64,000 nucleotides of DNA, taken from the NCBI GenBank assembly GCA_964016885.1, contig OZ024749.1:39866001-39930000 (forward strand). The letters are read 5' to 3'. Below the pieces are notes generated by a model. That model did not search any database, had not been told where the DNA came from, and was given only the letters and a program-made list of their open reading frames with translations. This document shows, in pieces, positions 25,666 to 25,766 of this stretch. The position numbers and the translations under genes were made by a program. Each line of letters opens with the position of its first letter. Positions within the stretch are counted from its first letter, which is position 1. The DNA comes from Eledone cirrhosa. Lineage: Eukaryota.

Positions 25666-25766
25666 GTCCTAATAACTTATTTTGGTTATTATTGCACCGA
25701 AGTGAGATATATGATTTTTAATGCAGTGAAATATCTATGATCTTCGGCAAATCACTGATGAGGGAC
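25666..25766 (+). ncRNA. Hammerhead-like structured RNA with non-canonical strand order and k-turn, copy 2
   Basis: GATAT-A-TGATTT, then GAA-ATATC, then AAATCA-CTGATGA-G-GGAC; covaries with 9810-9910. Confidence 0.7.

Follow-up and report, generated by a model that had tools for sequence, protein, structure and literature searches.

A type-SGC hammerhead-like motif with a predicted kink-turn in an abundant non-coding retroelement of Eledone cirrhosa, probably related to Naiad 3' ends

What are the two similar 101-nt cores found in a 64,000-nt stretch of the Eledone cirrhosa genome (the window; contig OZ024749.1, positions 39,866,001 to 39,930,000), and what holds their structure in place? A sequence-only reading had described them as copies of a non-canonical hammerhead whose source elements are under selection for RNA structure. 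We find that the term non-canonical holds in a precise sense, namely the type-SGC order of the hammerhead blocks, and that the 101 nt are probably the motif of a non-coding tandem retroelement that numbers more than 16,000 copies; self-cleavage is predicted after A25711, and the motif likely goes back to the 3' end of a Naiad. The copies display the S-G-C block order, covariation in seven helices, tandem units of 440-700 nt, (TA)n ends and 5'-to-5' inverted partners. The features of the window that bear on this reading are as follows.

9760-9980, plus strand: second, shorter copy, subfamily A (529-nt unit), with its core at 9810-9910 and a predicted cut at 9855/9856
25481-25518, no strand: (TA)n-rich microsatellite on the 5' side of the insertion, assigned from the sequence
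25519-25823, plus strand: retrozyme-like copy of subfamily B (497-nt unit), truncated at its 5' end and matching the L002 unit from 25519
25666-25766, plus strand: type-SGC hammerhead-like RNA with junction and predicted k-turn, 33 pairs
25666-25669, plus strand: helix H2, 5' strand, pairing with 25763-25766; both sides changed from G-C to A-U in 2 of the 10 subfamilies
25670-25691, plus strand: hairpin H3 (7 bp, 8-nt loop), junction arm on stem II; two-sided change in 4 of 7 pairs
25692-25695, plus strand: pseudoknot helix H4, 5' strand, pairing with 25723-25726; U-A to C-G double change
25697-25705, plus strand: predicted k-turn, non-bulged strand, with the 6-bp NC strand, 3n = U25703 and tandem GA 25704-25705
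25706-25717, plus strand: block S, with stem III strand 25706-25710 (U16.1 = 25710), H17 = A25711 and stem I strand 25712-25717
25711/25712, plus strand: predicted cut, from hammerhead rules
25723-25735, plus strand: block G, with H4 3' strand 25723-25726, 11.1 = U25727, GAAA 25728-25731 and stem III strand 25731-25735
25736-25747, plus strand: predicted k-turn, bulged strand, with a 3-nt bulge, GA, 3b = U25741 and NC strand 25742-25747
25749-25766, plus strand: block C, with stem I strand 25749-25754, CUGAUGA 25755-25761, 10.1 = G25762 and H2 3' strand 25763-25766
25824-25881, no strand: (TA)n microsatellite on the 3' side, likely the target site by its sequence

Read 5' to 3', block S (25706-25717) is followed by block G (25727-25735) and block C (25749-25762), and the blocks contain the elements of a hammerhead core, that is CUGANGA, GAAA, UH and stems I and III. 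CUGANGA, GAAA and the bulged-strand GA were fixed by our search pattern, and their invariance among genome copies is therefore no evidence. Across ten subfamilies, stem I is paired in 60/60 cells and stem III in 49/50, and every H4 cell is paired when the window copy is added to ten natural representatives; U16.1 and its pair with A15.1 occur in all ten subfamilies, and H17 is A in six and C in four, never G, with U in many copies of a further family, F. The new 5' ends that the sequence-only reading had predicted at 25712 and 9856 agree with H17 at A25711. In place of a continuous stem II closed by G10.1-C11.1, the motif has a single pair, onto which a junction of H2, H3 and H4 is built; this 10.1-11.1 pair is G-U, A-U or U-A in eight of the ten subfamilies and unpaired in two. 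Block S is linked to the H4 partner by 5 nt, and one nucleotide connects the bulged k-turn strand to block C. In the fold that we infer, the usual hammerhead core would be built from three blocks held by pseudoknots, and stem II would be a single pair capped by the three-helix junction. Nested minimum-free-energy folding of single copies with RNAfold recovered neither stem I nor H4 (z about -1), and is uninformative where a fold contains pseudoknots. The best 150 of 396 matches from an Rfam scan of the window included no hammerhead and consisted of microsatellite-driven microRNA matches and one tRNA-like match above the gathering score (35.2 bits; 5051-5108, minus strand), possibly the head of a SINE. 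The plus strand of the window also carries two minimal hammerhead-like motifs of ordinary order, at 38610-38640 and 7781-7820 (CUGANGA, a 4-bp stem II hairpin and GAAAC), which are typical of PLE termini; past CUGAUGA, the letters of the 38610 motif are identical to SGC family C.

Aligned to each other, the two window cores (9810-9910 and 25666-25766) need no gap and show exactly 10 mismatches, the number that had been counted by hand. Six of these form the three compensatory pairs that had been described: from the 9810 core to the 25666 core, 25699/25745 changes from A-U to G-C, 25701/25743 from C-G to A-U and 25707/25734 from G-C to A-U. Three more are unpaired, at 25684 in the hairpin loop, 25736 at L1 of the k-turn and 25741 at its 3b position, the last of which turns the pair beside the tandem GAs from C-U to U-U, as noted before. 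U-U at 3b-3n is typical of box C/D k-turns. No difference breaks a pair, and all 33 pairs of the 33-pair model are kept in both copies, again in agreement with the initial description. The tenth difference, a single-sided U-A to U-G change at 25726, is real but proves to be a minor variant rather than a family change, the pair being U-A in 42 and U-G in 2 of 44 distinct family-B contexts. Similarly, the downstream flanks do differ by a large indel, as had been remarked, but this is an 8-nt duplication of the 9810 copy that is absent from a family-A locus (L034), so that the flank indels reveal little about selection. The copies belong to two different young subfamilies, A for the 9810 core and B for the 25666 core, the top 40 scored matches of each copy being at least 99% identical to it; all differences other than the U-G wobble are therefore subfamily differences. 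When 10 transition-biased substitutions were placed at random 200,000 times, 0.04% of the placements spared all pairs and the core, and none also produced three double changes, in a test that favours this result since the 33-pair model was itself drawn from the two cores.

The wider family allows the same question to be asked of many more copies. From 338 contexts, 254 reach through H2, 250 are in the main register and 224 pass a filter on the 5' helices, leaving 133 distinct sequences; clusters with at least 3 members or loci defined the 10 subfamilies, and families E and F, which have another spacing, were left out. Standard pairs occupy 325 of 330 pair cells in the ten subfamilies, and 97.8% of 363 cells are paired among 10 natural representatives plus the window copy. 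Two-sided changes occur in 16 of 33 pairs, with at least one in each of seven helices. Slid controls pair at 25-49%, and none of 500 shuffles reached the observed covariation, a comparison whose significance is overstated because the ten subfamilies are related. For this reason, we also contrasted variant classes: 57 changes between subfamilies keep a pair and 9 break it, whereas 41 stem variants within subfamilies keep a pair and 59 break it (Fisher p = 3e-9; p = 3e-5 if both sides of a double change enter as one). This contrast supports the view, at the level of sequence, that source RNAs are under structural selection and that inserted copies decay, which is what the first two copies had been taken to suggest. 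Substitutions in further copies are not scattered at random over the stems, the outcome that would have spoken against that proposal.

The block order itself has a precedent. Eckert et al. (2023; PMC10085705) define the non-circular permutation S-G-C from metatranscriptomes, report that SGC RNAs cleave as single short transcripts at the analogous site, and describe permuted RNAs as absent from known organisms' genomes, apart from one bacterial GCS candidate. The motif described here resembles their type-SGC HRIMA-1 and its variants in the S-G-C order, CUGANGA, GAAA and UH, as well as in the short link from stem I to the segment before GAAA and in an extra helix that ties the arms together. In contrast, the published SGC RNAs set out there have a continuous stem II with G10.1-C11.1 where ours has one variable pair and a junction, and they come from metatranscriptomes, whereas the present motif lies in a chromosomal animal retroelement with a k-turn sequence in stem III. 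When compared by eye with the RNAmotif descriptor given in that paper (stem II 2-6 bp, CGAAA, CUGAUGAG), the motif departs from it in having UGAAA, with U rather than C at 11.1, and no continuous stem II, while stems I and III and both linker lengths fit. Two additions to known SGC RNAs may be proposed from the sequence, a k-turn in the extension of stem III and a helical junction that takes over beyond the one pair of stem II. An old SGC family in the same genome, family E (L127, L137, L143, L145, L214, L215), has G10.1-C11.1 and CUGAGGA and apparently lacks the H3 hairpin.

The interpretation of the stem III extension as a k-turn is borne out at the sequence level by the published consensus (PMC5061560), with a 3-nt bulge followed by G-A and A-G between the C and NC helices; the bulged-strand GA was fixed by the search pattern and the opposite strand was free. 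Five of the six NC pairs covary, 1n is A in all ten subfamilies, and 2n is G in nine and U in one, as in Kt-23 (PMC5061560). The arrangement is that of standard k-turns (box C/D, U4, Kt-7 and Kt-23, as covered in the same source), which differ in that the predicted k-turn here is embedded in stem III of a natural hammerhead. In family F (L158, L184, L194, L202 and others), Watson-Crick pairs replace the tandem GA and leave a plain 3-nt bulge, from which it follows that the k-turn is not required; the conserved feature seems to be the bend rather than the k-turn itself. Family F, whose junction hairpin is also different and whose H17 is U or C, offers a natural control for the role of the k-turn. 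With blocks in S-G-C order, single nucleotides would have to join the far end of stem III to those of stem I and H4, and a k-turn that bends the stem III extension back would permit such links. We believe that the purpose of the bend may be to turn the far end of stem III back in this way, in which case the k-turn could be a structural answer to the connectivity problem of Eckert et al., in whose RNAs stem III is joined directly to the stem I/II interaction.

Which element carries the motif can be seen from its copies. Three disjoint fixed-spacing patterns gave 11,357 + 4,271 + 653 = 16,281 matches in the 3.0 Gb genome, against 2 + 33 + 9 = 44 for reversed-pattern controls; an earlier off-by-one pattern, whose 32 matches were mostly indel copies or chance, was replaced by a corrected one. 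The unit is 497 nt long in family B and about 529 nt in family A, tandem 495-497-nt units are present in L005-L011 and L017-L019, and 62 tandem units with lengths of 440-700 nt occur among the 338 distinct contexts. The window copy at 25519-25823 shows one core mismatch to the L002 unit and ends at a TA-like island. No long ORF was found in a doubled family-B unit, where frames that start with ATG reach at most 102 aa (plus strand) and 29 aa (minus strand), and the ORFs of the window are microsatellite-derived. A separate array of about 90 kb with roughly 515-nt units (L164-L180, G000:C1:81.54-81.64 Mb) contains many units with a stem I mismatch beside CUGAUGA, and its sequence suggests that it was amplified at the DNA level, free of ribozyme selection.

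The manner of insertion is that of PLEs, with (TA)n targets, 5' truncation, partial tandems and inverted copies at the 5' side. The 3' boundaries gather at a small number of TA-like islands, 15-90 nt beyond the ribozyme, where (TA)3 or longer is present in 143 of 178 terminal copies, and neighbouring inverted copies lie 5'-to-5' in 21 cases and 3'-to-3' in 3 (p = 3e-4), the former being the PLE pattern as described in PMC8557442. The 190 mapped 5' ends are scattered; 5 fall at the predicted cut site where 2.2 are expected (p = 0.07), several of them fold-backs or template jumps, in a count from which L272 was dropped as a palindrome artefact and in which both sides of L274 count once. L274, L097 and L272 are very short head-to-head palindromes of two ribozyme halves, and the fold-back of L274 is centred on the predicted cut site. 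In run X4, a single 489-nt contig (depth 2.2) starts 1 nt past the predicted cut site and stops 5 nt short of it, and in run X5 the summed depth climbs about 25-fold near that site; both features were excluded from the evidence, since the runs are of unrecorded kind and are represented by contigs, from which neither ends nor levels can be read.

Non-coding tandem units with one hammerhead each and dispersed copies are the marks of non-LTR retrozymes, which the element shares except that its hammerhead is of SGC order instead of type I. The animal retrozymes presented in PMC7229834 and bioRxiv 10.64898/2026.07.22.740005 are likewise non-coding tandem units with one hammerhead per unit, occur as thousands of dispersed monomers and arrays, and have a proposed PLE origin. 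They differ in that their hammerheads are of type I, and were searched for as such in both sources, and in their unit length, about 170-400 nt in PMC7229834 (Cervera and de la Pena 2020) against 440-700 nt here. Only one of nine frog retrozymes cleaved in the test reported by Li et al. (bioRxiv 10.64898/2026.07.22.740005). If the present element lives as animal retrozymes do, its tandem transcripts would cleave themselves into unit-length RNAs, a host ligase would close these into circles, and a PLE reverse transcriptase/GIY-YIG protein would prime the RNA at a TA-like island on a nicked (TA)n target. Copying through the ligated cut site could then give rise to truncated solo copies, arrays and inversions.

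A likely source of the motif is provided by the Naiads, which Craig et al. (2021; PMC8557442) describe as lacking canonical hammerheads, with core or 'half-core' strings only and eight 'half-core' cases; Naiad_Obim and Naiad_Ovul are listed there as (TA)n-targeting, and Naiad_Ovul as 'HHR_half_core'. We read by eye, uncomputed, the terminal 300-350 nt of the 54 consensi in File S5 of that paper other than Naiad_Cmel and placed the blocks in SGC or CSG order in 16 of these 53 3' ends, including 5 of the 8 flagged as 'half-core'. By this reading, the order is S-G-C in ten whose stems I and III can pair (Obim, Ovul, Esco, Amil, Aacu, Anas, 2_Movir, Smim, Ptep and Bfor), stem II being unclear in Ptep and stem I only 2 bp in Bfor. 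Also by eye, C-S-G order appears in six nematode Naiads (1-3_Nbra, Hcon, Hpol and Asuum), a permutation known from only two metagenomic sequences according to PMC10085705. The three blocks could not all be placed by eye in the 300-350 nt of the other 37, among which Sdum has S and G blocks with a deviant C core and the half-core-flagged Parc, 3_Dst and 4_Dst were not placed. The 3' ends of Naiad_Obim and Naiad_Ovul, as judged by eye, have the blocks, spacing, k-turn, junction, four helices and 8-nt loop of the window copies with different stems, so that the whole SGC/k-turn/junction motif is shared; three coral Naiads share the junction and have a bulge where the k-turn would be. In bivalve and hemichordate Naiads (CGi, Sglo, Olur, Tgra, Pmar, Skow, Pfla), the 3' end carries another conserved motif, which lacks a hammerhead core. 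As a guess, we take it to be possibly another ribozyme class such as HDV-like.

By phylum, the same inspection by eye places SGC in a ctenophore, cnidarians, cephalopods and spiders, and CSG in nematodes. The two orders are related by circular permutation, and this suggests a single rearrangement early in Naiads as the source of both. We regard it as very probable that non-circularly permuted hammerheads are native to many Naiads across animal phyla, and the scrambled order is the likely reason why canonical hammerheads were reported to be missing from Naiads. The present element resembles Naiads, as characterised in PMC8557442, in its (TA)n targets, 5' truncation, partial tandems and 5' inverted copies, and differs in that Naiads encode an N-terminal GIY-YIG and an RT whereas it encodes nothing.

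A PLE parent with an RT/GIY-YIG ORF had been predicted from the sequence alone. The ORF was not borne out, as long copies run upstream into the non-coding tandem unit; the PLE connection stands, through the 3' ends of published Naiad consensi and the PLE-type insertion structure. Several motif-pattern searches of this genome found no intact SGC-bearing Naiad, only decayed remnants, and no ORF with an N-terminal GIY-YIG and RT, as an autonomous Naiad would have, lies upstream of SGC copies in the loci examined. An octopus-Naiad-like motif pattern matched 3 places without an ORF, an RT motif pattern 3 places of which two are decayed Naiads, an endonuclease pattern 3 places of which one is a short remnant, and a DKA pattern none. 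The family of the two decayed Naiads (L227-L261), with a DKA motif and a long 3' UTR ending at (TA)n, yielded 882 candidates, of which 40 were scored (67-85% identity), and had no hammerhead core in its 3' region. No long upstream sequence is common to families E and F. The finding of decayed Naiads only agrees with the statement in PMC8557442 that cephalopod Naiads are long inactive. PLE ORF pieces beside SGC copies (L048, L110, L011, L013, L112, L145, L150) were rejected as parents given their mixed orientations, and L110 in addition given its C-terminal endonuclease and its own ordinary hammerhead; these pieces fit nesting in shared (TA)n targets. The PLE at L110 1-1110 and L048 1800-3151 carries GIY-YIG at the C terminus and a type I hammerhead of its own, has frames that are mostly open, is nested with SGC copies in (TA)n, and is a candidate for the current mobiliser.

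Three other explanations of these data have to be weighed. The active ribozyme might form between neighbouring units or between two RNAs with ordinary circular topology, so that the S-G-C order would merely reflect a dimer; the elements are tandem, vertebrate retrozyme hammerheads act as dimers according to PMC7229834, and covariation cannot separate pairing in cis from pairing in trans. We nevertheless consider this unlikely, given that the SGC RNAs of PMC10085705 cleaved as single molecules, that each Naiad consensus carries one motif, at its 3' end, and that invariant links of 1 nt, together with a conserved bend, are in keeping with one molecule folding compactly. It is quite improbable, in our estimation, that the structure persists as a signal by which a PLE protein recognises or packages the RNA, or as a protective 3' element, with cutting lost or negligible. 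U16.1 is kept and H17 is only A, C or U across subfamilies, as cleavage requires, and by eye the core is intact in Naiads of several phyla with completely different stems. Such a signal would be in line with the fact that most copies continue past the cut site and retain the whole of block S (of 338 contexts, 254 span H2), with the weak enrichment of 5' ends there (p = 0.07) and with the non-standard 10.1-11.1 pair, but read-through of the cut site is also what a ligated circle predicts. A dispersed satellite or SINE whose apparent structure stems from shared ancestry and chance is very improbable, since, for all the relatedness that inflates the shuffle controls, it is largely refuted by covariation in every helix, by the collapse of the slid controls, by the contrast within and between subfamilies and by the same topology with unrelated stems, seen by eye, in coral, octopus, squid and spider Naiads. 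A self-cutting SGC motif of a Naiad-derived retroelement hence remains our preferred explanation.

In the literature searched, outside which most subscription journals lie, SGC hammerheads in animal genomes, a link of SGC to Naiads and retrozymes, and a natural k-turn in hammerhead stem III are not described. That literature yields Eckert et al. alone for the type-SGC hammerhead, the accessible portion of PMC13725137 merely cites this 2023 paper, and a query for hammerhead, four-way junction, helix II and Penelope returned nothing. Judged by title and the start of the abstract, the matches listed for hammerhead and kink-turn deal with engineered RNA, reviews, methods and other RNAs. If our interpretation is true, SGC permutations, which were described from environmental sequences only in 2023 (PMC10085705), would be common genome residents that type I descriptors have missed. 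It would also provide a testable answer to the puzzle that Naiads, among the most abundant PLEs, were reported without canonical hammerheads, and would offer the k-turn as a candidate point of control over self-cleavage, which retrozyme circles somehow avoid. According to PMC5061560, box C/D and U4 k-turns need bound protein in order to fold. That permuted hammerheads are native to many Naiads and that the k-turn here, moreover, makes cleavage depend on host 15.5K/Snu13 is a tentative and rather doubtful combination; if such protein gating were true, 15.5K/Snu13 would decide when the retroelement RNA is cut and when the circle persists.
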